Shown here one piece after another: positions 21,526 to 35,414 of a stretch of 64,000 nucleotides of DNA. The notes below the pieces were generated by a model that saw nothing but the letters and a program-made list of their open reading frames with translations, was not told where the DNA came from and made no database searches. A program made the translations under genes and the position numbers. Each line of letters opens with the position of its first letter. Within the stretch, counting starts at the first letter, position 1. This stretch comes from Candidatus Micrarchaeota archaeon (GTDB lineage Archaea; Micrarchaeota; Micrarchaeia; Anstonellales; Bilamarchaeaceae), in NCBI GenBank assembly GCA_043821365.1, contig JBDRCX010000006.1, forward strand, positions 288,001 to 352,000, written 5' to 3'.

Positions 21526-22704
21526 ATGACAAATCCTACTGTTCATAGAATTCAGTTTGGTAAAATTGTTCTTCCAGGTCCTTCAACTTGCTGTGGCGAT
21601 ACTGGCCATGTGATGGGTTTTGGGAAAAAACCAGCTGGCGCAAGAAAATTTTTGTCTTTGGTTGGTGGTCAAGAAGATCCTGTTTTTAGACAATTAAAGG
21701 AAGGGATGGGGATTTTAAGATCAAATCGTCTTCCAGCCAATACTTTGTATTCTGAGAATGATCCTGCAGTTGTTGCTTTTACAAGTGCACTTGCACATGG
21801 AACTGTTCAAGGGGATTTGTATGCTTTAATTGAACGCCTTATCGATACTCGCCCAGATCTAATGATTGATACTCCATCCGGACAAAGAATTGTTGATCTA
21901 GAGTTTGAAGTACAACATCCAAGACCATTTGAATCAGGGTATCACTTTCGTCTTGATAGTGAGTTTCATGTTCCTGATATATTACCAACTGCGGCCGTAT
22001 TGCTAAATCAATCAGAAAGAAGGTTTGGAGAGTTGGGTTCAGGTGCTGAATTGATTATGCAAGCACATATTACCGAACCATATATTCTTGCAGTTTCTGT
22101 TCTTCGTCATTTTGGCTATGATGCATACCCAGCTCAGGCAGTTGTTCCAAATAATGCAAACACAGTTCGTTTTCATCCAATAATTACTGTTATTGATCAG
22201 GACAAAGAATACCCACTTACAACGTTTGATCTTTTGCGTATTCATCCACCAATGGGCTCAATTGATATTATCAGTGATGTTGCTATGGTAGGTGCAACGT
22301 ATGCTGCATTAGCCGAAGCAAGAGTTAGGCATTTAACTGTTGAAATGCTTCGTCAGCATAAAGAAGGAAGAGAACTTTCAATGGATGAACTAACAAATCA
22401 ATTACGAAGAATTGCAGATGTACTTTTTGAAGCACATAAAAGATGGCCGGGGTGTCATTACATTAGCAATGCTTTGGTTTATGCATTTGAAGATTTTTCA
22501 AATACATTATTTACGATTAATCATGCAAATTTACAAGCTGAACTAGTCAAAACCCAACAATCCGGCAAGAGTCTTGGTTTTGATTTACAAGCTACAGTTG
22601 GGAAGTTCGCAGTAGAAGCAAGAATCACTGCTGAAAGATTTGCTAATTTTGTAAGATCCGTACTTGCACAAAAAATAGATCAATATGAAGCAACCAGTAA
22701 ATAA
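21526..22704 (+). CDS. Hypothetical protein
   Basis: Long ORF of about 390 aa; no family recognised. Confidence 0.65.
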   Translation: MTNPTVHRIQFGKIVLPGPSTCCGDTGHVMGFGKKPAGARKFLSLVGGQEDPVFRQLKEGMGILRSNRLPANTLYSENDPAVVAFTSALAHGTVQGDLYALIERLIDTRPDLMIDTPSGQRIVDLEFEVQHPRPFESGYHFRLDSEFHVPDILPTAAVLLNQSERRFGELGSGAELIMQAHITEPYILAVSVLRHFGYDAYPAQAVVPNNANTVRFHPIITVIDQDKEYPLTTFDLLRIHPPMGSIDIISDVAMVGATYAALAEARVRHLTVEMLRQHKEGRELSMDELTNQLRRIADVLFEAHKRWPGCHYISNALVYAFEDFSNTLFTINHANLQAELVKTQQSGKSLGFDLQATVGKFAVEARITAERFANFVRSVLAQKIDQYEATSK

Positions 22705-22708
22705 AATT

Positions 22709-22806
22709 CGGGCCCGACGGGATTTGAACCCGTATCCCGAGGTATCTCCTACAATTAGGAGGGGCATTCGAAGCCTCGTCGGTTATCCAGGTTGCCAAAC
22801 GGGCCC
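22709..22806 (-). tRNA. tRNA-Arg(TCG) with 24-nt canonical 37/38 intron
   Basis: GGGCCCG/CGGGCCC acceptor, CGAGG-CTTCGA|A-CCTCG anticodon arm, A20, T-arm ACGGG-TTCAAAT-CCCGT; intron 22744-22767 forms a BHB (CTTC/GGAG). Confidence 0.9.
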
Positions 22807-23532
22807 TTTTTCTATCTTTATTTCTTTCCGTAGTATTGATAATCGTTCTGCATAAGTTGTATTTGGTGGGCAATGACCATATCTCATCCAAATGTCATAT
22901 CTACTAGATTTCACATGATTATTCATACCTATCATGTTCATCCATTTAATTGCTCTACCCCCAGTTATCCAAATTCTATATGCATTTGACCATTTTGAAT
23001 TTTGAGGGTATACAATATCGCTACAATGTCTAATCTCTAGACTATTAAGAATATCTTTTGTTTCATCAAAAAGAGATTTGGACGTAGTGGTCAAATTTAT
23101 CACTGGATAATAATGGCATGTTCTTTTGAATTCACGGTATTTTCCAGTACTTCGTTTGAACGAAAGTGATCCATCGGTATCAACTAAACCCCTTAAAAAA
23201 GCACATTTGATTTGCAAGCTTTGGGTCTTCATTATAAATTTGGGAATTGAAACAATGTAGCTTTTTCTACCATAAGGAAATCCTAGTGAATGCATTTTTT
23301 CTATTATTTTCTTCTCTCTAATAACGAATCCATATGTGCTTCGTTTAGGAAAAATTCTTCCATTGATTACAGTTCGAAAAACTTTACTAAATAGCGGAAT
23401 TACTATATTTCTATAGTAAATCTCTTCTTCTAATGAACCACTCACATCCAGCTCCCTATTATGGTTCTTATTTCTCAAATGGCCATCTCCAGCATGGATT
23501 CCACATATCTCTGCAAGTTCTATATCCCCCAT
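22783..23532 (-). CDS. LAGLIDADG homing endonuclease 1 (overlaps the tRNA-Arg 5' end)
   Basis: LAEICGIHAGDGH and FLRGLVDTDGS motifs; the stop codon lies in the tRNA D-loop. Confidence 0.9.
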   Translation of the reverse strand: MGDIELAEICGIHAGDGHLRNKNHNRELDVSGSLEEEIYYRNIVIPLFSKVFRTVINGRIFPKRSTYGFVIREKKIIEKMHSLGFPYGRKSYIVSIPKFIMKTQSLQIKCAFLRGLVDTDGSLSFKRSTGKYREFKRTCHYYPVINLTTTSKSLFDETKDILNSLEIRHCSDIVYPQNSKWSNAYRIWITGGRAIKWMNMIGMNNHVKSSRYDIWMRYGHCPPNTTYAERLSILRKEIKIEKGPVWQPG

Positions 23533-23693
23533 ATCTGATACACAAATCCATAACTTATCTATTTTTCGGGGGACACATCATTTCCTAGATGGTTTAGACC
23601 ACGGACCCTTGAGTTGATTGGCTGTGTAATGTTCTTAATTTAATCATCCTTGTGGTAGAGTGGTTAAAAATGTTTTTATATACTGATTGTATT

Positions 23694-24395
23694 ATGCGTT
23701 TTAGAGACATTACTGCCACTGGAAAACATAGGTCATGGCTACCTGAATGGGGCAAACCCTATTCCCCTGGTTTCAAACATGCTGAAGTTCGTCCACTTTT
23801 AGAGGAAATGGACAGAAAAGGAATGCTTGGTAGAATGTTCTTAGATTGTGGTAGTGGCAGCAAAAAATCTGATTTTTATCCTGTAAATGGTAAGCGTGTA
23901 ATTCGTGTGGATGTTGGTATGCCTTATGGGTATTCAAGAGATGGTAATGTTCTTGAACTTAGGGTAGATGTCGAAACACTAACATTGGCCACACTGGTTG
24001 ATCTTTACCGTAGTCTTCCTAAGGAATGCCACTTTGCCGGTTCAGCTATTAATATTGTGCCAGATACTCTCATAGTGGTTGATCTCCTTAACTATGTTAA
24101 TTTCAGAGATGTCATACCACGACTTATGGATATGCTTCGTTATGGTGGTAGGGCAGTTATCAGTAACTTTGCTGGCATGGGAATTACAGAATTACTTTCA
24201 CAGGATGGAGTGAAAAACAATTTACAATTTTTAGAATTCTTATCTGAGTGTAAATTCAGACTCGAACATCTTACTTTTCCGCCTTTATTTCCACCGTCGT
24301 GGGTTCCACGTTCTGAACCACCTGCTCCATATCCGTCAATAGCTACTACTCTGAGAGATAATGGGAGCATGATATTGGTTCTGGTGAAAGATTAG
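23694..24395 (+). CDS. Methyltransferase-like orphan protein
   Basis: FLDCGSG motif I, IRVDV, LLNYV; ATG at 23694 preferred over GTG 23652. Confidence 0.6.
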   Translation: MRFRDITATGKHRSWLPEWGKPYSPGFKHAEVRPLLEEMDRKGMLGRMFLDCGSGSKKSDFYPVNGKRVIRVDVGMPYGYSRDGNVLELRVDVETLTLATLVDLYRSLPKECHFAGSAINIVPDTLIVVDLLNYVNFRDVIPRLMDMLRYGGRAVISNFAGMGITELLSQDGVKNNLQFLEFLSECKFRLEHLTFPPLFPPSWVPRSEPPAPYPSIATTLRDNGSMILVLVKD

Positions 24396-25301
24396 CTATT
24401 TTGTTAAAACTTCGCAACCATCTTTTGTTACCAAAATTGTGTGCTCTGCTTGTGAAACCAGCCCTCTACTAACTTCTCTTAAAACAGGATAGCCTCGTAT
24501 GAATTGGTTTTGCAACAATTCTTTCAGCGCAGCACTCACAAGCAATTTTGATGGGAATTCCTTTCTCACCCATCGTTCAGCAAACGGAAGCATTCCGTAA
24601 TTTTTTATTACATAATCAACTATCTTTCTTGACTGCCTCATTCTTACATTTGCTGGGGAATAAAGAGAAAATATTTCTACCTGTTCCAAATCTTCAACAT
24701 ATCCACTCCCAGTTGTTGCAAAAGGTTCAACAGCAAAAATATCTCCTTCTTTGAGTTTGTAAATATCTTTTGTTCTTATGTTTGGTATCTCAACACCAGC
24801 ATGCAATTGGTTTGATTTTATCATATGTCCTGAAAGATTTGAGATTGGTTTGAAACCGTACTTGTTTATTGTTTCTTCTATCAAACCCCCAATTTCACCA
24901 ACTCCTACGTCTGGTTTAATTGCGTCTATTGCATTCTGAAGAGCTTCTTCTGATGCTTTAACAAGAGTTTCATTTTTTCCACTCATATCAATTGTGTAAG
25001 CAGTATCTGAAAGCGCACCATCGATTTCTATTCCAAGGTCTATCTTTACTAGGGCATCATCCTCCATCAAACGTTCTGAATCAAATTCTGGAGTGTAATG
25101 TGCTGCTATTTCATTAATTGAAATATTTACCGGAAATGCTGGTTTTCCTCCTTCATCCTTTATGCTTTGCTCTATCATATCAGCAATGTCCAATAATGAT
25201 TCCCCTACCATTATCAAACGTTTACTTTCTTCACGTATTTTTGCTGCTATTTTTCCCGCAGTTCTAAATTTTTCTAATTCATCATCAGACATGAGTATCA
25301 C
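24396..25301 (-). CDS. map: Methionine aminopeptidase type II
   Basis: AFPVNISINEIAAHYTP, KIDLG, DTAYT, LSGH, AVEPF, QAEHT. Confidence 0.96.
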   Translation of the reverse strand: MILMSDDELEKFRTAGKIAAKIREESKRLIMVGESLLDIADMIEQSIKDEGGKPAFPVNISINEIAAHYTPEFDSERLMEDDALVKIDLGIEIDGALSDTAYTIDMSGKNETLVKASEEALQNAIDAIKPDVGVGEIGGLIEETINKYGFKPISNLSGHMIKSNQLHAGVEIPNIRTKDIYKLKEGDIFAVEPFATTGSGYVEDLEQVEIFSLYSPANVRMRQSRKIVDYVIKNYGMLPFAERWVRKEFPSKLLVSAALKELLQNQFIRGYPVLREVSRGLVSQAEHTILVTKDGCEVLTK

Positions 25302-25392
25302 GTTTAATATGCTGTTTTCAGTTTAAAAAATGCGTCTATATTGATGAATTTATGTGACACATGTTTAAATATAAAAATCAAGCGTTTATCTC

Positions 25393-25662
25393 ATGGAACT
25401 TTGTTTTCGTCAACGTGGTTCTACAGAGCGAAGTACGAAACGCCCAGTTCCAATCATAAAAGCAATAAAAAGGATTCCAGTTCCGGATTTTGATCCAAAT
25501 TGGGTACCTCCTGGAGCACTTGAAAAACTTAGAAAAGAACAGCAGCCTCCAAAAGAGGATCGTCCGCGATTGGAATTACCACTTTATGATGAACCACCAC
25601 CAGGATGGCAACCAAGAAATGAAACACCAAAAGAAGAGCGTGGTGTTGTTATTCAAATCTAA
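25393..25662 (+). CDS. Pro-rich small hypothetical protein
   Basis: 89-aa ORF filling an intergenic gap, with TTTAAATA upstream. Confidence 0.55.
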   Translation: MELCFRQRGSTERSTKRPVPIIKAIKRIPVPDFDPNWVPPGALEKLRKEQQPPKEDRPRLELPLYDEPPPGWQPRNETPKEERGVVIQI

Positions 25663-25663
25663 T

Positions 25664-26521
25664 CTATCTCATTACAAGTCGTCTTTTTACTTCATACAAT
25701 TTTCCTAAGTCAGGAACATCAAATCTTGGCGGTCTAAATGGTTTGACTGACCCTATCTCTCTAATCCATGGTACTTTGTCAGGAGGATCAATTATCCTGA
25801 TCTCTCGTGGTCCTGTTGTTACAAATCTTCCCTCTTCATCTCTTTGTACATTTGGTATACTTATTTTCCCTCGCACAAGGCGTCGGTCTATTACTTTTCT
25901 TGCCTTTCTCCATTCATGCGATTCAAGAATACTATAATCAAGCAATAAAAGTACATCTACAGTTGCACATCTCATTACTGTTCTCAAAAATCTTCCTGCT
26001 GCTTCTAATGTGGCACCAGTCATCACATCATTTTCCAAAAGCAAAATTCGTTTACCTTCAAGCGATTCTGTTATGTGTTCAATTGGTGCCACCTTTCTCA
26101 ATGTATCAGAGTTCATTCTTTTTGTTAGTATATTTGTAACATCCCATCCGACCAAATCAAAAATATAACTAAGCCAAAGTCCTTTGACTGCATTTCCAAC
26201 AGCACAATCATATCTTTCACGCAATTCATGCGCAGCTGTCCATGTTGCTTCAATATTACCTACTTGCGATGCATATGGATATTGAAATGTTCCAATCCTA
26301 TTGTGTGCATCTCTAAGAATTCCTATTTCTTCATCTGTGATAGCTCGTCTATCGATTGCAGTTGTAACTATCTCAACTAACTTTGTTTGTACTCCTTCGA
26401 GATATTCTCTAAATTTTCTCTCGAATTGTACCATCAAATCTGTTAATCCACGTTGTGCCAGTCCTTCCTGAGTGTAATATGCTTCTCGTGGCATCTCTGA
26501 TGGTGTTCCTTTTGTGCCCAT
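25664..26521 (-). CDS. Phosphoribosyltransferase-like domain protein
   Basis: ILLLENDVMTGATL resembles the PRPP-binding loop; start set at MGTKG. Confidence 0.55.
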   Translation of the reverse strand: MGTKGTPSEMPREAYYTQEGLAQRGLTDLMVQFERKFREYLEGVQTKLVEIVTTAIDRRAITDEEIGILRDAHNRIGTFQYPYASQVGNIEATWTAAHELRERYDCAVGNAVKGLWLSYIFDLVGWDVTNILTKRMNSDTLRKVAPIEHITESLEGKRILLLENDVMTGATLEAAGRFLRTVMRCATVDVLLLLDYSILESHEWRKARKVIDRRLVRGKISIPNVQRDEEGRFVTTGPREIRIIDPPDKVPWIREIGSVKPFRPPRFDVPDLGKLYEVKRRLVMR

Positions 26522-26592
26522 ATTTATATACGTATTACCATATCTTTTTATTGCTATCCTTATCCTCATTAATACTTCTTCACATAATTAGT

Positions 26593-29148
26593 ATGATGCC
26601 AAGCGTAGCAGAATTAATCCGAGAAAGGTTTGGCGAGCTTACCCCCATTCAAAAAATTGCCATGCCCAATGTTCTTGCTGGAAAAAATGTCCTTATTTTA
26701 GCTCCAACTGGTTCTGGGAAAACTGAAAGTGCACTTTTGCCCATCCTAGAAAAGATCAAACTCAACAAAGACAAGACACCTGGTATTAGGGCACTGTACA
26801 TAACTCCACTCCGTGCACTTTCACGTGATCTTAAACAAAGGTTCAACTGGTGGTGTGACAGATTAGATATTTCACATGACATCAGAACTGGCGATACAAC
26901 AATGGCAGAAAGGGCAAAACATAGACGCAATCCCCCCCAAATCCTTCTTACAACTGTGGAATCATTACAGGCACTTTTGCTCGGACGAATAATGCGCAGA
27001 CATCTTTCAACAATTGAATTTGTTATTGTTGATGAGATTCATGATATTTTAGACAATAAACGAGGTGCACAACTTTCGCTTGGTCTTGAACGTCTTAACG
27101 AAATTGCCAAATTCCAAAGACTTGGTATAAGTGCAACAGTTGCAAATGAGTCAGAAGCAGGAAAACTTCTTTTTGGTGATCGTGAATTTCAACTTTGTGA
27201 AAGTGGTAAAAATCGGAAAATGGATTTTAGTGTAGAATCACTTTCAAATGAAAAACGTTTAGAAAGAATAAAAAAATTATCAGAACAAAACCGGTCATTG
27301 GTTTTTGTAAATACGCGAAGTACAGCAGAAGAGATCGGTGCGTCATTGAAAAAAATGAAAGCATCAATAGGGGTTCATCATGGTTCCCTTGCAAAAGAAG
27401 TTAGATTAACTACAGAAGATGATTTCAAAAGCAGCAAGATCAATTCTATCCTATGCACATCTTCTCTTGAATTAGGAATTGATGTTGGGGATGTTTCATT
27501 AGTTTTGCAATATGGTTCTCCTCACCAAGTTTTTCGTTTAATACAAAGAGTTGGAAGATCTGGCCACAGTCTTGAGAAAACACCCAAAGGAATTATTTTC
27601 AGTTCAGATTTTGATGATAATCTTGAAAGTGAAGTAATAACAGTACTTGCAAAAAACGGGTGGATGGAAGATAAAAAAGTCGAGAGGGGTGCATTAGATG
27701 TCATTGCACACCAGATTATTGGAGTGTGTATTGATTTCGGAAGAATAGAACTTTCAAAAATACACCAAATACTTTCACGATCATATGCATATGGTATTGA
27801 TTTCAATAAACTAAGGATGGTTGCGCTTCAGCTTTTTTCTGAAGGACTAATATATTATGATGAAACTCCTAAGGATGTTCTAGTCAAAACAACCAGAAGA
27901 GCAATAATCTACTATTCCACATTTATCAGTACTATACCAAAAACTAAAAAATTTCTTCTTCGTGATATATCTGCCAACCGATTTATTTCAAGTTTAGATG
28001 AAGAATTTGTTGTTAATCTAGAGGCAGGATCAAGTTTTCTTTCCCATGGTCTTCCATGGCACGTGATAGATATTACAGAAAAAGAAGTGCTTGCAGAACC
28101 AACATCTGGTTTGGACATAATGATACCTTCTTGGACTGGGGAAGATATCCCTGTTTCTTTTGATGTTGCACAAGAAGTTGGAAAGATGCGTTCAGTTAAA
28201 GCGATTTCTCCCCTTCCTGATCATAAGATCATCGTCATAGAGCTAGTTGAAGACTTGATTGTTGTTCATGCTTGTTTTGGTACAAAAGTAAATGAAGCGA
28301 TTGCACGTGTGTTCTCAAAACAAATTTCCAGTTTAATTGGGGAAAGTGTGATCGCAGTTTCTGATCCATATAGAATTATGATAAAATTGCCATTTCCACT
28401 AAAAGAAGAAAATATACAAAGTGCTTTTGAAAATGTCAGGAATGTCAAGAACCAATTGTCTGATGCACTCGAACATTCTTCAATGTTAAAATTCAAATTC
28501 CTTCATGTTGCGAGGATGTTTGGTTTGCTTTCAGTTGAAGGAACCATGAATTCAAGATATATTCAGATGCTCCGACACTCAGTTGTTTATGAAGAAACAA
28601 TACGTTCTATTTTTTTCAGATATTTTGATGTTGAAAAAACTGAAGAAATTTTGAAAGATACTAGAAATGGAAAAATAAAATTAATTTACGATGTTAGAAA
28701 AAAACCAAGTTTCTTTGCACAAATAGGTCTTGAAAGAATGTCCGGGGCAGATTCTGTTGGTGCATTTGAACCTCGTGAAAGAATAGTTTCTGCATTTAAG
28801 GAGAATGTTCTCTCGAAAACAGTACGCTTAATCTGTCTTAATTGCAAAGCAACAAGATTTATGCATCTTGCTGGTGCACCTGAAAAAATTGTTTGCCATA
28901 AATGCAATCAACCTTCGTTGGCTATTGTAAATAAAGAGGGTGAGCCAAAACATGATGCGGAATTTTCTGCAGGCTTAATCCGTGCTTACGGAAAAAAAGC
29001 ACTTATTGCTCTTTCTACTTATGGTATTGGTCCACAAACAGCTGATCGTGTTCTAAGACGATTGCATAAAACAGAAGAAGCGTTTTATCTTGATCTGATT
29101 GAAGCACAAAAGAATTTTATTAAAAATAAAAAATATTGGAAATTGTAA
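26593..29148 (+). CDS. lhr: Lhr-family SF2 helicase
   Basis: LTPIQ, APTGSGKT, DEIH, HHGSL, SSLELGIDVG, QRVGRSGH, DVIAHQI; C-terminal Zn-ribbon; start near MMPSVAE. Confidence 0.92.
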   Translation: MMPSVAELIRERFGELTPIQKIAMPNVLAGKNVLILAPTGSGKTESALLPILEKIKLNKDKTPGIRALYITPLRALSRDLKQRFNWWCDRLDISHDIRTGDTTMAERAKHRRNPPQILLTTVESLQALLLGRIMRRHLSTIEFVIVDEIHDILDNKRGAQLSLGLERLNEIAKFQRLGISATVANESEAGKLLFGDREFQLCESGKNRKMDFSVESLSNEKRLERIKKLSEQNRSLVFVNTRSTAEEIGASLKKMKASIGVHHGSLAKEVRLTTEDDFKSSKINSILCTSSLELGIDVGDVSLVLQYGSPHQVFRLIQRVGRSGHSLEKTPKGIIFSSDFDDNLESEVITVLAKNGWMEDKKVERGALDVIAHQIIGVCIDFGRIELSKIHQILSRSYAYGIDFNKLRMVALQLFSEGLIYYDETPKDVLVKTTRRAIIYYSTFISTIPKTKKFLLRDISANRFISSLDEEFVVNLEAGSSFLSHGLPWHVIDITEKEVLAEPTSGLDIMIPSWTGEDIPVSFDVAQEVGKMRSVKAISPLPDHKIIVIELVEDLIVVHACFGTKVNEAIARVFSKQISSLIGESVIAVSDPYRIMIKLPFPLKEENIQSAFENVRNVKNQLSDALEHSSMLKFKFLHVARMFGLLSVEGTMNSRYIQMLRHSVVYEETIRSIFFRYFDVEKTEEILKDTRNGKIKLIYDVRKKPSFFAQIGLERMSGADSVGAFEPRERIVSAFKENVLSKTVRLICLNCKATRFMHLAGAPEKIVCHKCNQPSLAIVNKEGEPKHDAEFSAGLIRAYGKKALIALSTYGIGPQTADRVLRRLHKTEEAFYLDLIEAQKNFIKNKKYWKL

Positions 29149-29149
29149 T

Positions 29150-29572
29150 CTATTCTATTCTTGCTCGCATCAGAGGTTCTTTGGAATATAATAATGCTAA
29201 AACCAACACTGTTCCAATTATGGTTTCTATCCACATTCCTAATCCAGCCAACACCCCGATTGATGCAGTTACCCAAATTGCAGCAGCAGTTGTTATCCCA
29301 GATGGTTTTGCCATGCCCTCTTTCCAAATAACAGCAAGTCCAAGAAAACCAACACCAGCAACTATCTGGGCTATCACCCTTGTTGGGTCATAACTGTTGC
29401 TATATGGTAGAAACATATCTGCAACTGAAACTATTGTGAATACAGCAGAACCTAGTGAGATCAATGCAAATGTTCTCACTCCTGCTGGTTTGTGCTTTCT
29501 TGATAAACCTATTAACAGTCCTATGGCCACAGCAGCTACAAGTCTTATTACTGCTTCCAATTCACTTACCAT
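29150..29572 (-). CDS. MgtC/SapB family membrane protein
   Basis: GLLIGL, AGVRTF, DPTRVIAQIVAGVGFLG, GITTAAAIW. Confidence 0.9.
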   Translation of the reverse strand: MVSELEAVIRLVAAVAIGLLIGLSRKHKPAGVRTFALISLGSAVFTIVSVADMFLPYSNSYDPTRVIAQIVAGVGFLGLAVIWKEGMAKPSGITTAAAIWVTASIGVLAGLGMWIETIIGTVLVLALLYSKEPLMRARIE

Positions 29573-29673
29573 ACTCGATATTCTGTGACAGTGCTTTATA
29601 AACTTTCATCGAACCACGTTAGCCATGCCAAGAACGTCGAAACGTTCTTGAGTATCGTAACCGGAGGTTCTCA

Positions 29674-30252
29674 ATGCACAGACAAGTTGGTTTGGTACAA
29701 TCAGGTGGAAACAGCGGAAATAAATTCCGTCAATTCACTTTACGTGCTGAAGGCATCCAAGTTCTTCCTCAAAATACAGTAGAAAATATGGTGCATACAC
29801 TTCATCGTCGTTCCGCTCATTCAATTCTGTCAAGATATTCTGCTGCAAAAAAAACATTACAAGAACAATTTGGTGGTGTTGTTGAACTGGTGCAGGTTCA
29901 TAATGGTGCAATAAGAATAGCTGCTAGACTTGAATTCCTTACTGACCATTTACGGCTTGATGAAAAATTACATTCACTTGTTGTTGGTATGGGTTTTGAT
30001 TTGGTACTTCATCATAGGGTTAGACCAACAGAAGAGCATGTATATATCATAAGTGAAAGTAGGTACAAATCAACCGCTGACTTTTCAGCAGTTGCACATA
30101 TTACTGAAAATCTTCTTCGTCTTGCAAAGATGTTGGAACAATATACTGTTGAATTGCCAGATAATGTAGTGAGACTTCCTATTGGTGAAACAACTCCAAC
30201 TTCTGTTCGAAGTTGCACATTCGAGAACCGGAGGGTGGCACTAGGCACATGA
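29674..30252 (+). CDS. Hypothetical protein
   Basis: 192-aa ORF; no family recognised. Confidence 0.55.
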   Translation: MHRQVGLVQSGGNSGNKFRQFTLRAEGIQVLPQNTVENMVHTLHRRSAHSILSRYSAAKKTLQEQFGGVVELVQVHNGAIRIAARLEFLTDHLRLDEKLHSLVVGMGFDLVLHHRVRPTEEHVYIISESRYKSTADFSAVAHITENLLRLAKMLEQYTVELPDNVVRLPIGETTPTSVRSCTFENRRVALGT

Positions 30253-30280
30253 TTATTAATTTTATCTAAGTGCACATATA

Positions 30281-30832
30281 ATGCGTTTGCCAAGTTTTAT
30301 TATCTATGCTCTATTTGCACTTATATTTGTTCTAATGCTCTTTATGGCATTTAATATTTTTGATCATACTTTATTACTTATTCTTATCACAATCGATATC
30401 CTATTATTTTTCTGTCTTCTCTATCTGTTCATCACTCAAAGATTATCAAAAGAAATAGATTTTACAAAATATCCAATTGAGGTTCCAGTGCTTGGCATGC
30501 ATGAAAGAGCAAAAATTCTTCCAGATTTTATCCTACAAGAGGATGTTAGTGGAGTTGCTCCGAAAATGGTTTTCTTTCAAGATCATTTTGAGTTCAATCC
30601 AAGTGCCATTGGTATCAGACCAAGAAATAAGCGTTATTCTGAAGTTGAATTGGTAGATGTTACTCATTTTTTGTTTATGGATACAGTTAAATTTACCTTC
30701 AAAGGCAATCTCGCTCTTTCTATTCAACTATTACACAAGAAAAATCTTATCCTGCTTCTTAAATTTCTTAACAAAAAAGGATGCATATTTTCTCCAAAGA
30801 CAAAAAAACTGCTAAAACAAAATCCTTCCTAA
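30281..30832 (+). CDS. Hypothetical membrane protein (2 TM plus soluble domain)
   Basis: Two N-terminal hydrophobic helices. Confidence 0.6.
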   Translation: MRLPSFIIYALFALIFVLMLFMAFNIFDHTLLLILITIDILLFFCLLYLFITQRLSKEIDFTKYPIEVPVLGMHERAKILPDFILQEDVSGVAPKMVFFQDHFEFNPSAIGIRPRNKRYSEVELVDVTHFLFMDTVKFTFKGNLALSIQLLHKKNLILLLKFLNKKGCIFSPKTKKLLKQNPS

Positions 30833-30861
30833 TTTTAATTTCTTACTCTCTTTATCCTATC

Positions 30862-30924
30862 ATGTTCAAACAAACAATTGTTGTTCGTGCTGATCTAAAG
30901 ATGAACCGCGGAAATGACGTCTAA
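30862..30924 (+). pseudogene. Orphaned 5' fragment of pth2 (MFKQTIVVRADLKMNRG-NDV*)
   Basis: 12 of 17 residues identical to the N-terminus of the intact Pth2 at 31894; similarity ends at the endonuclease ATG. Confidence 0.85.
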
Positions 30925-31909
30925 TCCTGTTTATAAACGACCAAAAATCTATTTTTTTATGAAACGATATTGGGATAAGAAATATTTGAAAAAACAATTA
31001 CGTGCTGGCAAGACTTATCTAACCATTGCTAAAGAAAATAATATCTCTAGTACTACTGTTCAAAGAGCATTAAATACATATGAGCTAACGAAACCAAGGT
31101 ACGATTGGAATCAGAAAGAACTCGCTCTTCTAAAACGATACTACTGCCGCACATCCTATCCAAATCTGATTCTACCTCATAGGACTTTAAGTTCTATCTA
31201 CCATAAAGCTACTCGTCTTGGTCTGAAAAGTTCTAATCATTTTAGGAAATATAAAATTAACACAAATTTTTTCAAAAAATGGACAAAATCGATGGCATAT
31301 CTGCTTGGATGGATGTTTAGTGATGGGAATATGGCGGATGATTGCCGTTCATTCAGATTAAAATTGGCGATTAAAGATCAAGGAATTTTATATGTCCTTA
31401 AGCGTGCCATGAACGCAAATGTTCCGATACGTGTTCATTCACAATTAGTTCCCTCTAAAAAATATTATGCTCAGTATGCTAATCTAAGAGTTACTAATAT
31501 CGAAATGTATAATGATCTCGTTCGCCTTGGGTGCACTCAAAACAAAGTGCACAAATTTATTCCACCCAACATTCCGCCAGTTTTTGTTAGTCATTTCATC
31601 CGTGGATATTTCGACGGAGATGGGTCTATCTATTTTAATAAACCTAATACTATCAGAATTAGATTCGTTGGTTCCAATCGTACTTTCATTCTTTGGCTGG
31701 CTACTTATTTTAATAAAAAATTGTGCTGTCCATTTAACTTCAAAAAAACTCCAATTGCAAAAAAATTATGGCAATGCGAGTATTATGGCGATAATGCACG
31801 TAATCTATGCAAGTGGATGTACCGTGGTTGTGAGAATCTTTATCTTAAACGAAAACGAAAACGCTTTATTGACCATCTGAAAAAGAGAATGTTATGTTCA
31901 AGCAGATAA
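30914..31909 (+). CDS. LAGLIDADG homing endonuclease 2 with N-terminal HTH-like region
   Basis: MAYLLGWMFSDGN and FIRGYFDGDGS motifs. Confidence 0.9.
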   Translation: MTSNPVYKRPKIYFFMKRYWDKKYLKKQLRAGKTYLTIAKENNISSTTVQRALNTYELTKPRYDWNQKELALLKRYYCRTSYPNLILPHRTLSSIYHKATRLGLKSSNHFRKYKINTNFFKKWTKSMAYLLGWMFSDGNMADDCRSFRLKLAIKDQGILYVLKRAMNANVPIRVHSQLVPSKKYYAQYANLRVTNIEMYNDLVRLGCTQNKVHKFIPPNIPPVFVSHFIRGYFDGDGSIYFNKPNTIRIRFVGSNRTFILWLATYFNKKLCCPFNFKKTPIAKKLWQCEYYGDNARNLCKWMYRGCENLYLKRKRKRFIDHLKKRMLCSSR

Positions 31910-32244
31910 TCGTTATGCGGAAAGATCTCAAAATGTCTGTGGGTAAGCTTTTAGCACAATCTTCTCATGCGTCACTTTCAGCTTACAAAAAAGTCTCAAA
32001 ATCAAATCCAGAAATTGCAAAAAGTTGGGAGGCCGAAGGTCAGAAAAAAGTTGTTTTGAAAGTAAACAGCGAAAAAGATTTATTCGAATTTTTTCAAAAA
32101 GGAAAAGATGCAGGAATACCCTGCGAAATCATTAGGGATGCAGGACACACTCAACTAGAACCTGGAACATATACTTGTTTTGGCGCTGGCCCATGGGACG
32201 AAAAACTCTTAGATGAGATTTTCGGAAAATTGAAATTACTTTGA
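31894..32244 (+). CDS. pth2: Peptidyl-tRNA hydrolase 2
   Basis: KQIIVMRKDLKMSVGK..AQ..HA, GQKKVVLK, RDAGHTQLEPGT.T. Confidence 0.95.
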   Translation: MFKQIIVMRKDLKMSVGKLLAQSSHASLSAYKKVSKSNPEIAKSWEAEGQKKVVLKVNSEKDLFEFFQKGKDAGIPCEIIRDAGHTQLEPGTYTCFGAGPWDEKLLDEIFGKLKLL

Positions 32245-32780
32245 TTTTTATGCAAGTTTTTCTATTTCATTGTTGGGGTGGAGATGGCAAAAGTTGCTGG
32301 TCATTTTGGTTAACCAATCGTCTTAAAGAAAAAAATATCTCGGTTCTATCCCCTGATTTTCCGGATACAAATTTTCCTAAATTAGAAAAATGGCTAGAAA
32401 CTATCCGTTCAAATCAAGGAAAATTTGATAAAAAAGAGGATTGGGTTTTTATTGGTCATTCACTTGGTTGTCCCACCATCTTAAGATTGCTTGAATCATT
32501 TGAGAAAGATGAACATGTGAAAAAAGTAATTTTAGTTGCAGGATTTGCAAAAGATCTTGGAATTCCAGATATAAAGAATTTCGTCGATCAAAAATTCAAC
32601 TGGGAAAAAATCAACTCGGTTTGTGATGAATTTGTTGTAATAAATTCTGATGATGATCCTTTTATTGAATTGAACGAAGGAGAAAGGTTGGCAAAAATGC
32701 TTAATACAAAACTGATTGTTGAGCACAATGGTGGTCACATAAATAATCTACACTATGCTCGTTTGTTAGAATTTCTCTAA
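32241..32780 (+). CDS. RBBP9/YdeN alpha/beta hydrolase
   Basis: W..WL, GHSLG nucleophile elbow, SDDDPFI, GGHIN. Confidence 0.88.
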   Translation: MIFMQVFLFHCWGGDGKSCWSFWLTNRLKEKNISVLSPDFPDTNFPKLEKWLETIRSNQGKFDKKEDWVFIGHSLGCPTILRLLESFEKDEHVKKVILVAGFAKDLGIPDIKNFVDQKFNWEKINSVCDEFVVINSDDDPFIELNEGERLAKMLNTKLIVEHNGGHINNLHYARLLEFL

Positions 32781-33262
32781 CCTCCAGTCCAACAACTCGC
32801 CGGTGTTATCATTTTTTCTTTATCTTCTTTACTATATTCTTTATCCATAATCCTATATCCAGTATATTTTTCTTCTACTGGATCCATATCAGGTCCAGGG
32901 GGAGGAAGATAAAAACTTTCTTCTATCTCATTGACAATATAGTCTTTTTCAATTTCTAAACACCATTCTTTTACTATTATTTTTTCCGGCATATCATCTC
33001 CAAAAACATTATTGAAAATCCGCTTGAATTTTTCCGGTGCTGTTTTAGGGTCAAATTCCTTTTCAAAAGTTGTTCCAAGATATAATCTCGCTGGGGGCAC
33101 ACCAATTTCTTTATTTTTTCCATTTATTTCTACAAAAAACCTTTCACTAGTAACGTAAGCTCCAGTATATGTTCCTACATCAATAAATAATGCAGTTTCA
33201 AAGTACACACATCTTTTCCCACTAAATGGAGCTTCCATTTCTTTACCAGTGAATTTGACCAT
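32777..33262 (-). CDS. Hypothetical acidic protein
   Basis: 161-aa ORF (APFSGKRCVYF); no family recognised. Confidence 0.6.
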   Translation of the reverse strand: MVKFTGKEMEAPFSGKRCVYFETALFIDVGTYTGAYVTSERFFVEINGKNKEIGVPPARLYLGTTFEKEFDPKTAPEKFKRIFNNVFGDDMPEKIIVKEWCLEIEKDYIVNEIEESFYLPPPGPDMDPVEEKYTGYRIMDKEYSKEDKEKMITPASCWTGG

Positions 33263-33369
33263 AAAGAATTAGTTGAGTTATAAAATAAAAACGTGCTTGA
33301 AACTGCGGTTTCAAGATAGGCAATTTTGATAAATAGGGGTGCGGGGATGTGCCCCGCAACAAAAAGAAA

Positions 33370-33590
33370 TGCCACGGGCCTGATTTGAACAAGCGACCCC
33401 ACCGTTTCCAAACTTTTTGAAAACATCATTGTTGCAAAACAACAATGCGCCCATAAAAACGATAGTTCGTTTTTATAGGGAAGTTTGACCGAACTGGGAT
33501 TCCAGTTAAGATACTTCAGCTTCACAGATTCTTTTAGTTAAAAAATTCCTAAAAGAAACAGGTGTGCTCTCCCAACTGAGCTACCGTGGC
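33370..33590 (-). tRNA. tRNA-Phe(GAA) with two introns (30/31: 33521-33560; 37/38: 33405-33513)
   Basis: Exons GCCACGG...GAGCACACC / GCTGAAG / ACGGTG...CCGTGGCA rebuild CACCG-CTGAAGA-CGGTG; BHB at both introns (CACA/TGTG; CTGA/TTGG). Confidence 0.88.
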
Positions 33591-33607
33591 ATTTAGTATT
33601 TTAGTTG

Positions 33608-34243
33608 TTAACGGAAAGATTCTAAAATAGTATTTATTCTCCTCCTTTTATGTGGATTTGAGGATCCTATGTCATTATTCCATTTAGCTAGCATCTTCAT
33701 TCCATATATGGAGATTTTATAACTACCATTTCCTGCATGTCTATAATTTATTCGAAATCCCATCTCAATCAATGTTTTGTATACCTGTATTAACAATGTT
33801 TGATTCGAATTTGTTATCTCCAGTGTGGGGTAGCTCTCGATGCCTTTTTTATGTGATGTAAACACAGACCCATCAGTGTCGAATAAACCCCTAATGAAAG
33901 CTTTTAGTAGTTTTTTAGTGACACTTATTCTTGGCGGGATTCCAAATTTACACTTTAATGTTCTAGGTGGTATCCCTATTTTATTTGTGATAAACTGGTA
34001 AAATTTTTTAGAATATATAGTTAATCGCAATCCCCTACTCCTCACCCTATAATATGGTTTTTTTATTCTGGAATGAACAAAGAAGTAGATATAGTCAAAA
34101 TATTCTCTATCTGTTATGATGTTCCCGGTTAATGTTATCTCGTATTTTCTTCCATTAGACCATATATTCCCGTCTCCCATCACTGCCCCACAAAATTCTG
34201 AAATCATTTCATCAATAAAATAATCTTCCATAGTATTTCTCAT
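33608..34243 (-). CDS. LAGLIDADG homing endonuclease 3 (17 nt upstream of tRNA-Phe)
   Basis: SEFCGAVMGDGN and FIRGLFDTDGS motifs. Confidence 0.9.
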   Translation of the reverse strand: MRNTMEDYFIDEMISEFCGAVMGDGNIWSNGRKYEITLTGNIITDREYFDYIYFFVHSRIKKPYYRVRSRGLRLTIYSKKFYQFITNKIGIPPRTLKCKFGIPPRISVTKKLLKAFIRGLFDTDGSVFTSHKKGIESYPTLEITNSNQTLLIQVYKTLIEMGFRINYRHAGNGSYKISIYGMKMLAKWNNDIGSSNPHKRRRINTILESFR

Positions 34244-34487
34244 TTGCTATTCTTTATCTCTATGATCCTGTTTTTGATGTGCCTGCCCATCAAAAATACT
34301 ATTTTAAATGTTATTTACCATATATTTCCATTACAGACAAGTAAAAAAAGATTTCATTTAGCCTTTGATAGGTTTATGAAGTCTTTCAACCCCAGTAAAT
34401 TTTTTCAGTTTAGCTGTTATTGAGGTTTTCTACCACAAATATTCCAAAGTAGTCAGAGGTAAATAAGGGGATGGTAGGTTCATCCCT

Positions 34488-34736
34488 ATGATATTAAGAG
34501 CAATTGCGAAATTACATTTCATCGTTGGTCTGGGTATGTTCTTATTTGTAGGGCTAATGGTTGTCTCTGACGATGTTGATGCCCGTGCTCTTCTTCTTTT
34601 GCCCATAGTGATAATGTTTATGGCAGCTAAAATCCTTCATACAATTGATCAAGCAAACGAACTAGAGGATATGATGTATCGTTATAAAAAGAGAATTTCA
34701 GACCCACTACCTACCGAAGCGTCTTTTTCTTCTTGA
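34488..34736 (+). CDS. Small 2-TM membrane protein
   Basis: Two hydrophobic helices in an 82-aa ORF. Confidence 0.5.
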   Translation: MILRAIAKLHFIVGLGMFLFVGLMVVSDDVDARALLLLPIVIMFMAAKILHTIDQANELEDMMYRYKKRISDPLPTEASFSS

Positions 34737-35414
34737 ATACTCATTAATTGCAGCAGTAAAATCCTTTTTTGAAAAGTCTGGCCATAGTTTTTTTGCAAAG
34801 TAAAATTCACTATAGCATGTTTGCCATGGCATAAGACCCGAAAGTCTTTGTTCACCTGATGTTCTTATTACTAAATCAGGATCAGGAAGACCTTTTGTAT
34901 ACATGGAGTTACTCAAGGTTGTTTCATCAACTTTTCTAATTCCTTTTGCTAAAATATCGTTTACTGCATCAACTATCTCTTCACGTCCGCCATAGGATAA
35001 AAGAAGATTAAGTTGGTATTTCCTTTTTCCTCCTGAAGTTATTTGTTCTGCTTTTTTTATCATGCTTTGGATCTCAGAAGGGAATAACCCTGTTCTCCCA
35101 AAAAATCTCACTCTTAATTCATTCTTATTTCTATCATCACTGTCTATTGCTTTTTTCAAATTCTCCTTAAATAATCCAAACAGATCTTTTATTTCATCTT
35201 TGTCTCTCTTGAAATTATCTGTGGAAAATCCCCACATGGTAAGCATTGCCACGTCAAATTCTTTGCACCATTTGAGAACATCGCCAATTTTTTGAATTCC
35301 CTTGGCGTAACCTTCATGCTTAGTGAGTTTGTGTTTTTTGCTCCAACGTCTGTTCCCATCTGGCACGATGGCGATATGATTAGGTATTGTAACCTCCACC
35401 ATTAGTTTAATCAC
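34707..35414 (-). CDS. uppS: cis-prenyltransferase (UppS family)
   Basis: HIAIVPDGNRRW, WGFSTDNFKR, SYGGREEI, IRTSGEQRLSG. Confidence 0.95.
   Translation of the reverse strand: MIKLMVEVTIPNHIAIVPDGNRRWSKKHKLTKHEGYAKGIQKIGDVLKWCKEFDVAMLTMWGFSTDNFKRDKDEIKDLFGLFKENLKKAIDSDDRNKNELRVRFFGRTGLFPSEIQSMIKKAEQITSGGKRKYQLNLLLSYGGREEIVDAVNDILAKGIRKVDETTLSNSMYTKGLPDPDLVIRTSGEQRLSGLMPWQTCYSEFYFAKKLWPDFSKKDFTAAINEYSRRKRRFGR

Follow-up and report, generated by a model that had tools for sequence, protein, structure and literature searches.

The 64-kb window analysed here (64,000 nucleotides of a Candidatus Micrarchaeota archaeon, the term being used for the whole stretch, C6:288001-352000 of the source genome G000, which has 1.2 Mb and 36% G+C) carries three free-standing genes of the LAGLIDADG homing endonuclease family, here designated homing endonuclease genes (HEG) HEG#1, HEG#2 and HEG#3. 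They are placed upstream of and co-oriented with tRNA-Arg, pth2 and tRNA-Phe, respectively, an arrangement first described in a first-pass annotation of the sequence and confirmed here in all its overlaps and its gap. HEG#1 overlaps tRNA-Arg(UCG) by 24 nt, so that its last 8 codons and stop correspond to nt 1-24 of the tRNA; HEG#2 overlaps pth2 by 16 nt; and the HEG#3 stop lies 17 nt before G1 (33590) of tRNA-Phe. These genes very probably belong to homing cassettes that settle at the ends of conserved genes and replace those ends, with no need of an intron or intein.

Such a cassette would comprise its own promoter (the upstream element GCGGAAAT plus a TATA-like box), the endonuclease gene, a further TATA embedded in the last codons of that gene, and a variant end of the target gene, which would be fused to the 3′ end of the endonuclease gene and would differ from the native end at the presumed cut site. 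The enzyme would cut a cassette-free allele near the gene end, and recombinational repair from a cassette-bearing genome would copy both the cassette and the replacement end. The native end would then be displaced as a dead stub while the gene stays intact, and the new allele would no longer be cut. Within the window, pth2 and tRNA-Arg appear to follow this course, and the tRNA-Phe cassette seems to lie just upstream of the tRNA promoter.

The pth2 Locus

The longest open reading frame (ORF) of HEG#2 (30914..31909, plus strand, 331 aa) runs into a working hybrid gene for peptidyl-tRNA hydrolase, pth2 (31894..32244, plus strand; PF01981, E=4e-42). The orphaned 5′ piece that had been claimed upstream of this endonuclease gene proved to be real: codons 1-14 of a stranded native pth2 start occupy 30862..30903 (plus strand), with the native promoter just upstream and a frame that continues to a stop at 30922-30924, and the region 30862..30912 matches 12 of 17 N-terminal pth2 residues by tblastn (E=0.002). 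The duplication was revealed by tblastn alone and was missed by blastn-short because the DNA has diverged too far. The first 17 codons of the working gene (31894..31944, plus strand), taken as the cassette-borne replacement start, carry the variant RKDLKMS.G.

The comparison with empty alleles that the annotation had put forward as a check was carried out with 36 empty alleles at pth2 and 11 syntenic ones at tRNA-Arg. The pth2 gene was present in 40 of 40 genomes of the genus, and a gene of the HEG#2 clade was found directly upstream in only four (G000, G016, G017 and G048), the homologues sharing 52-54% identity. The first 42 nt of the stub were 95.2% identical to the empty allele of G015, 90.5% to that of G024, the nearest relative of G000, and 71% to the working start of G000 itself. 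Moreover, G015 has the same upstream gene as G000 and 92% identity in the 60-nt promoter region. The working protein showed the opposite pattern at its N-terminus, since residues 18-116 were 89.9% identical to those of G024 and residues 1-17 only 64.7%. When these 17 residues were compared with the other cassette-linked alleles, the identity was 70.6-82.4%, and the empty allele of G015 tied with the lowest of these values (70.6%). In addition, RKDLKMS.G was present in all four cassette-linked alleles, as opposed to RADL.MGKG in the empty ones. Because of this pattern of identity to empty and cassette-linked alleles, the stub is read as the native start and the working start as a sequence that travels with the cassette, the body of the gene following the host, as expected from co-conversion of flanking target sequence. 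The break at codons 14-17 would be the likely cut region. Among the other cassette-linked loci, that of G048 has its own stub of ~22 codons and a scrambled target region, and those of G016 and G017 have lost the stub, the HEG#2 homologue of G016 being decayed by a TGA inside the gene.

The tRNA-Arg Locus

HEG#1 (22783..23532, minus strand) reads into a working chimeric tRNA-Arg(UCG) gene (22709..22806, minus strand) with a 24-nt anticodon-loop intron, and it is only because of this intron that ARAGORN calls the unspliced gene 22709..22806 'Ser', the spliced form being Arg(tcg). The 5′ stub that had been suspected at this locus is also real. A stranded native 5′ end of 18 nt (23591..23608, minus strand) adjoins the left end of the cassette and matches the 'type B' gene of G024, not the resident gene, and apart from this site (23608..23591) the 1.2-Mb genome contains just one other that lies within 3 edits of the 17-mer at the 5′ end of the G024 tRNA-Arg. 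The endonuclease gene was absent from the syntenic tRNA-Arg(UCG) locus in 11 of the 11 relatives examined, and the HEG#1 homologue of G012 (L056) also overlaps the 5′ end of tRNA-Arg(UCG).

The 5′ halves of tRNA-Arg in the genus fall into two compensatory D-arm types, A and B. In the working gene, nt 1-72 are of type A (92% overall identity to G007), while over its final 26 nt the gene does not differ from the type-B gene of G024. To judge from this comparison, the gene is a chimera with nt 1-72 foreign and the last 26 nt native. The earlier claim that a foreign variant 5′ end restores the gene without splicing and leaves the native end stranded thus stands at both pth2 and tRNA-Arg, on the basis of the empty alleles, the stubs, the chimera and the enzyme clades.

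It could be argued that such duplications are scars of another event, either the activity of tRNA-targeting integrase elements or local illegitimate recombination, and that the endonuclease gene was a passenger or a late arrival. The partial duplication of a tRNA gene is a classical result of integrative elements, to which a stranded tRNA-Thr 5′ fragment of Caldiarchaeum has been ascribed, with no mention of an endonuclease (PMC3293823). However, neither an integrase nor any other gene separates stub and gene in the present loci, in which the insert consists solely of an endonuclease unit of ~0.7-1.1 kb. The duplicated pieces are divergent (71% nt identity at pth2) rather than identical att repeats, the enzyme clades track their targets, and the same layout recurs at many non-tRNA genes. 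Such an origin of the duplications is therefore very improbable.

Distribution of the Cassettes in the Genome, the Genus and Beyond

The survey of LAGLIDADG neighbourhoods, also proposed by the annotation, revealed that the neighbours are not random. In G000, each of the six free-standing LAGLIDADG genes borders on the start of another gene, namely tRNA-Arg, tRNA-Phe, initiator tRNA-Met, a fourth tRNA, pth2 and rtcB, and the copy at initiator tRNA-Met is frameshifted. In the genus as a whole, 53 of 57 free-standing copies were at gene ends. The largest group, with 23 copies, was co-oriented with tRNA genes and placed before or overlapping their 5′ ends, and 13 copies were co-oriented and just before a protein gene (pth2, rtcB, MetRS, Trp/TyrRS, DnaK, Nre and others). 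Convergent copies were found on the 3′ ends of tRNAs (4) and of protein genes (12: SOD, inositol-1-phosphate synthase, ThrRS, Obg-like GTPase, SAM synthetase and others); one was inside the anticodon-loop intron of a tRNA-Asn, and the position of four could not be resolved. The claim that translation genes are the targets was thus borne out for many copies, at tRNAs and synthetases, and proved too narrow, SOD, inositol-1-phosphate synthase, DnaK and Nre being targets as well. Similarly, the targeting of 5′ ends was true of all three window copies, but the convergent 3′-end version is common in the genus.

The enzyme clusters defined by BLAST mapped one-to-one onto their targets (pth2, rtcB, MetRS, tRNA types, inositol-1-phosphate synthase and SOD). 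Stubs were also recovered at several of these genes: at Nre, the endonuclease ORF is joined in frame to the first 12 codons of the host gene (E=1e-6), and 3′-end stubs were detected for Obg-like GTPase (6e-5), ThrRS (5e-4), inositol-1-phosphate synthase (0.002) and SOD (0.008). Wherever the layout was resolved, the endonuclease gene had the stub on the side of its promoter and the intact host gene on that of its stop codon.

Outside the genus, the relatives numbered at least 490 and came from GTDB genomes of Micr-, Woese-, Pace-, Nano-, Aenigmat-, Undin-, Alti- and Hadarchaeota, as well as of CPR bacteria. Among these wider loci, a co-oriented tRNA 5′ end was located within -48..+78 nt of the endonuclease stop codon in 43 of the 79 that could be assessed, the commonest offset being -14.

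An alternative explanation is that the LAGLIDADG proteins are domesticated host factors, maturases or regulators of intron-rich tRNAs, which are co-transcribed with them and no longer mobile. The ORFs do read into the 5′ end of the tRNA, so that co-transcription is possible; the tRNAs of G000 are unusually rich in introns; and a maturase function is known for some LAGLIDADG proteins, one of them, the bI3 maturase, being among the fold matches of HEG#3. Nevertheless, the splicing of archaeal tRNA introns is the task of the EndA endonuclease, and the genes are absent at the same loci in 36 of 40 genomes for pth2 and in all 11 examined for tRNA-Arg. Copies are commonly found in a decayed state, as shown by a frameshift at C6:37299-37944, by a TGA in G016 and by remnants at tRNA-Phe. 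Moreover, neither catalytic acidic motif has been lost, and the same design is found at protein-coding genes and at 3′ ends. A host role of this kind is accordingly held to be highly unlikely.

It could also be supposed that ordinary intronless homing of the phage T4 type is at work, with intergenic genes beside their targets and stubs arising as incidental by-products of sloppy repair. The copies at tRNA-Phe, rtcB, MetRS, Trp/TyrRS and DnaK, which have no stub, and the location of the tRNA-Phe insert upstream of a TATA box would be in agreement with this. However, the variant pth2 5′ end is common to four cassette-linked alleles, and it is because their endonucleases are just 52-54% identical that this end is considered to travel with the cassette. 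Furthermore, no fewer than eight different targets had a stub, in each case at the promoter end of the endonuclease gene. Ordinary homing of this type, with merely incidental stubs, is thus improbable.

End-replacing cassettes remain the preferred explanation, and several observations weigh against it. No stub was found upstream of the rtcB, MetRS, Trp/TyrRS, DnaK and L075 cassettes or of the tRNA-Phe cassette, nor at initiator tRNA-Met and most other tRNA cassettes; because several targets (tRNA-Phe, rtcB, MetRS, Trp/TyrRS and DnaK) are without one, end replacement is not universal. Type A tRNA-Arg is also present in many cassette-free genomes and can for this reason be regarded only as a putative resistant allele. 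On the left, no more than ~18-45 nt of homology would be available, a short arm for recombinational repair, and the patchy distribution could partly reflect losses instead of gains. At tRNA-Phe, the presence of the endonuclease gene is weakly correlated with that of an extra 30/31 intron (p ~0.05 when related genomes are treated as independent). Finally, the contigs of three DNA runs yielded no cassette-free joint with adequate flank at any of the three sites. Three skipping joints were listed (29138-30824, 32745-33366 and 33296-33564), with flanks of 20-30 nt, and these may stem from other organisms. The contig of a co-occurring strain diverges at 30845, just 5′ of the pth2 stub, with no identifiable empty pth2 allele. 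The cassette-gene junctions themselves were bridged at 100% identity by Logan contigs from three metagenome runs of two studies, one of which is possibly the source sample.

Some individual loci showed further peculiarities. In L047 (G044:C21:86700-93000), a tRNA-Asn(GUU) has a canonical 37/38 intron of ~0.7 kb that encloses a whole LAGLIDADG gene of 214 aa (L047:2945-3586, minus strand), with one half of the tRNA on each side of the ORF. No report of an archaeal tRNA intron encoding a homing endonuclease was found in the literature, and this arrangement is possibly a stage in the transition between the intron-borne and the free-standing form. In G000 (C6:672778-673858, locus L089), the LAGLIDADG gene ends 4 nt before rtcB, the overlap being 45 nt in L041 (G053); the rtcB frame breaks after CMPDGH and resumes in another frame, and rtcB also carries an intein further on. 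In L061 and L073 (G018 and G005), the first 9-10 nt of initiator tRNA-Met (AGCGGGGTA) are tandemly duplicated between the endonuclease stop and the tRNA, which has an intron directly after position 9; the duplication may be a footprint of the right junction of the cassette. In L050 (G049:C49:600-6900), a 334-aa LAGLIDADG gene with a GCGGAAAT promoter is placed directly before a homologue of uppS (undecaprenyl-diphosphate synthase), the start of which appears frame-disturbed; the uppS gene of the window (34707..35414, minus strand) is intact and without a cassette.

The tRNA-Phe Locus

The tRNA-Phe(GAA) gene (33370..33590, minus strand) is composed of three exons (33590-33561, 33520-33514 and 33405-33370), separated by an extra intron of 40 nt at position 30/31 (33560-33521) and by the canonical 37/38 intron of 108 nt (33513-33406), both on the minus strand. 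Because of these two introns the gene was called neither by Rfam nor by default ARAGORN, and the hand-spliced 73-mer was recognized as tRNA-Phe(gaa). Most of the tRNA genes detected in G000 bear introns, which in several cases reach 90-180 nt (Thr 135, Pro 128, Ser 178 and Cys 126). Default tRNA finders miss many of them, and without intron mode a single tRNA was called in the 64-kb window.

This locus did not conform to the end-replacement model into which the annotation had placed it, since it has no stub, the endonuclease gene is upstream of a TATA box, and the link is instead with the 30/31 intron. In empty alleles a TATA box lies ~27-30 nt before G1, and in filled alleles a like box is found within the last ~10 endonuclease codons; in the window this is ATTTTAGAAT (33619..33628, minus strand), in the last codons of HEG#3, ~29-38 nt before G1. 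The insert is consequently taken to lie upstream of the tRNA promoter. Among 30 tRNA-Phe loci of the genus, the 10 without the 30/31 intron had no intact endonuclease gene and one remnant, and the 20 with it had seven intact genes (five at the 5′ end and two convergent at the 3′ end) and ~4 remnants. These counts from related genomes would fit a protection of the resident allele, probably by a co-inherited 30/31 intron that would split the target, as in collaborative homing, rather than by replacement of the gene end.

Promoter Elements

The annotation had supposed that the cassette captures the promoter of its target. Such a capture is not required, for the cassettes have an upstream element and a TATA of their own. 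At pth2, GCGGAAAT (30908..30915, plus strand) marks the left end of the cassette, as judged from its position directly 3′ of the pth2 stub, and is followed by a TATA-like box, TTTATAAA (30930..30937, plus strand), 22 nt before an ATG at 30959. A weak copy of the same conserved element, GGAAATGA (23578..23585, minus strand), is present at the left end of the tRNA-Arg cassette. In the genus, 24 of 50 cassettes had GCGGAAA[TC] in the interval -120..+10 relative to the start codon, with a peak at -51..-57, the frequency in control windows being 0.8%, and the typical geometry was the element, 8-20 nt, a TATA-like box, ~22-29 nt and the ATG. The bare 8-mer was no more frequent in the genome than expected (41 seen, 41 expected), so that only its position relative to the TATA and the start is non-random. 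Among the wider loci, the element was limited to relatives in Micrarchaeota. By virtue of this geometry, the ATG at 30959 is the probable true start of HEG#2, and homologues of this protein align only from residue 16-19. The possibility that the GCGGAAAT motif is a remnant of a target site or of a tRNA 5′ end was considered and rejected, the motif being the same at unrelated targets and absent outside Micrarchaeota.

HEG#2 contains in its last codons a second TATA-like sequence, CTTTATTG (31864..31871, plus strand), 23-30 nt upstream of the ATG of pth2, which is the presumed promoter of the restored gene; an equivalent A/T box occupies this position in G016, G017 and G048. From their placement, the cassettes appear to carry both a promoter of their own and, within the final ~10 endonuclease codons, a TATA that would drive the restored gene.

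The same element-plus-TATA layout precedes a small-ORF/radA operon in 21 of 30 genomes of the genus (loci L232-L261). From this shared arrangement it is hypothesized that the cassettes may be co-regulated with radA, the recombinase on which they depend. At this operon the element (in G000 at C6:186948, plus strand; locus L230) is followed by a conserved palindrome, TTAGTATATAC...GTATATAC, which is probably an operator. A third copy of GCGGAAAT is at G000:C6:707611 (minus strand), before a structured region and a 43-aa ORF. A hairpin, ACCTTTTTACCAAAAAGGT, is present directly upstream of GCGGAAAT at G000:C6:186920-186947 and G000:C6:707612-707640, and also within the intron of a tRNA gene in another genome (L086), and could represent a small palindrome of a mobile or regulatory nature.

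Anatomy and Family Identity of the Endonucleases

All three window genes encode two-motif LAGLIDADG proteins, with both motifs visible in each. HEG#1 (249 aa) matched the Pfam family LAGLIDADG_3 (PF14528) with E=5.6e-10 and 39.8 bits, and HEG#3 (33608..34243, minus strand; 211 aa) with E=2.7e-10 and 40.8 bits. For HEG#2, which has a two-motif core and a weak, sub-threshold helix-turn-helix match at the N-terminus, the values were E=1e-4 and 23.0 bits, just above the curated cut-off of 22.5 bits. In an alignment of 17 relatives (A1), the acidic motif G23-D24-G25 (GDG) was invariant and D122-T123-D124 (DTDG) nearly so. The AF2 model obtained for HEG#3 (pLDDT 92.5, pTM 0.90) has the pseudo-dimeric alpha-beta-beta-alpha-beta-beta-alpha fold, and its best PDB matches by Foldseek were PI-PfuI (1.5e-11), I-Tsp061I (3e-10) and I-DmoI (~1e-8). 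No match to PDB sequences was obtained by phmmer with HEG#2 and HEG#3, the relatives emerging from the fold search. By motifs and profile the three genes are thus assigned to the LAGLIDADG family, and site-specific DNA cleavage is their predicted activity.

The annotation was also right in that none of the three resides in an intein or intron. Their ORFs have their own starts and stops, and the adjoining genes are complete. No group I or group II intron was detected by Rfam, either with E<=10 over 22000-35000 or at the gathering threshold over the whole window, the sole match being tRNA-Arg. Elsewhere in the region, a contig of run X2 joins 32744 to 33367 and omits a 161-aa ORF (32777..33262, minus strand), which suggests a strain variant without this ORF, on a flank of only 30 nt.

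Relation to Known Systems

The closest known relatives of these cassettes are fungal mitochondrial mORFs that bring a replacement gene end. Those with a foreign C-terminal gene end have been described in atp6 of Allomyces macrogynus and in atp6, atp9, cox2 and nad3 of Glomus (PMC3630166), and C-terminal duplications of atp6 and cob flanked by homing endonuclease genes are known in Endoconidiophora (PMC6279837). The mORFs and the present cassettes share the insertion of a free-standing LAGLIDADG (or GIY-YIG) gene into a conserved gene, accompanied by a foreign copy of the gene end; in either system the native end persists as a stub closer to the alleles of relatives than the inserted copy is, and the hybrid gene is functional without splicing. 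This layout, with the ORF between the foreign end and the native stub, was found at pth2 and tRNA-Arg and not at tRNA-Phe. The mORFs, however, reside in organelle genomes, affect 3′ ends only and are downstream of and co-oriented with the host gene, whereas the present elements occupy an archaeal chromosome, include tRNAs among their targets and appear to have two promoters per cassette. Moreover, 5′ ends are here replaced by co-oriented cassettes, as for the window copies, all three of which are at 5′ ends, and 3′ ends by cassettes with a convergent endonuclease gene.

In the intronless homing of T4-like phages, exemplified by SegF, SegG and SegB, the last in a tRNA cluster (PMC2988022), a free-standing gene likewise adjoins its target and spreads by double-strand-break repair with co-conversion of flanking markers. 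Those enzymes are of the GIY-YIG or HNH type, not LAGLIDADG, and are encoded in the spaces between genes, where neither a stub nor a duplicated or replaced gene end accompanies them. The tRNA-Phe locus recalls instead the collaborative homing of cyanophages, in which, as summarized in PMC6279837 from Zeng et al. 2009 and Bonocora & Shub 2009, the free-standing F-CphI gene lies beside an intron-bearing psbA. Judging from that summary, both have a free-standing endonuclease gene next to a gene with an ORF-less intron, which at tRNA-Phe plausibly splits the recognition site; the intron of tRNA-Phe differs in being an archaeal, enzyme-spliced tRNA intron at 30/31 and not a group I intron. With I-DmoI, I-Tsp061I and PI-PfuI, the closest structural matches of HEG#3, the fold and motifs are shared, but these enzymes are encoded inside rRNA introns or inteins and depend on splicing, whereas HEG#1-3 stand alone. 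No description of end-replacing cassettes in archaea was found in full-text literature searches.

Implications for Archaeal Gene Evolution

A wider proposal joins these observations: end-replacing cassettes would be a major undescribed class of mobile elements in DPANN and CPR, which would be a source of non-canonical tRNA introns, of stranded tRNA fragments and, in the long run, of split tRNA genes, and would borrow the radA upstream element to cut when repair is induced. Taken as a whole this proposal is tentative and somewhat unlikely.

The cassettes described here, by providing a spare gene end and spare promoters, would constitute a route by which a homing endonuclease may enter essential genes, such as those for tRNAs and aminoacyl-tRNA synthetases, without a self-splicing intron or intein. 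They also offer a testable source for three puzzles of archaeal tRNA genes, namely the odd position of some introns, the existence of stranded fragments, and gene ends that are chimeric or have been exchanged horizontally. In addition, a family of this size, with its members in several archaeal phyla and in CPR bacteria, would represent many diverse rare-cutting enzymes, the approximate targets of which can be read from the neighbouring gene. Finally, caution is advisable in these lineages, in which ~20 codons at either end of a marker gene, or the 5′ half of a tRNA, may differ in history from the rest of the gene.

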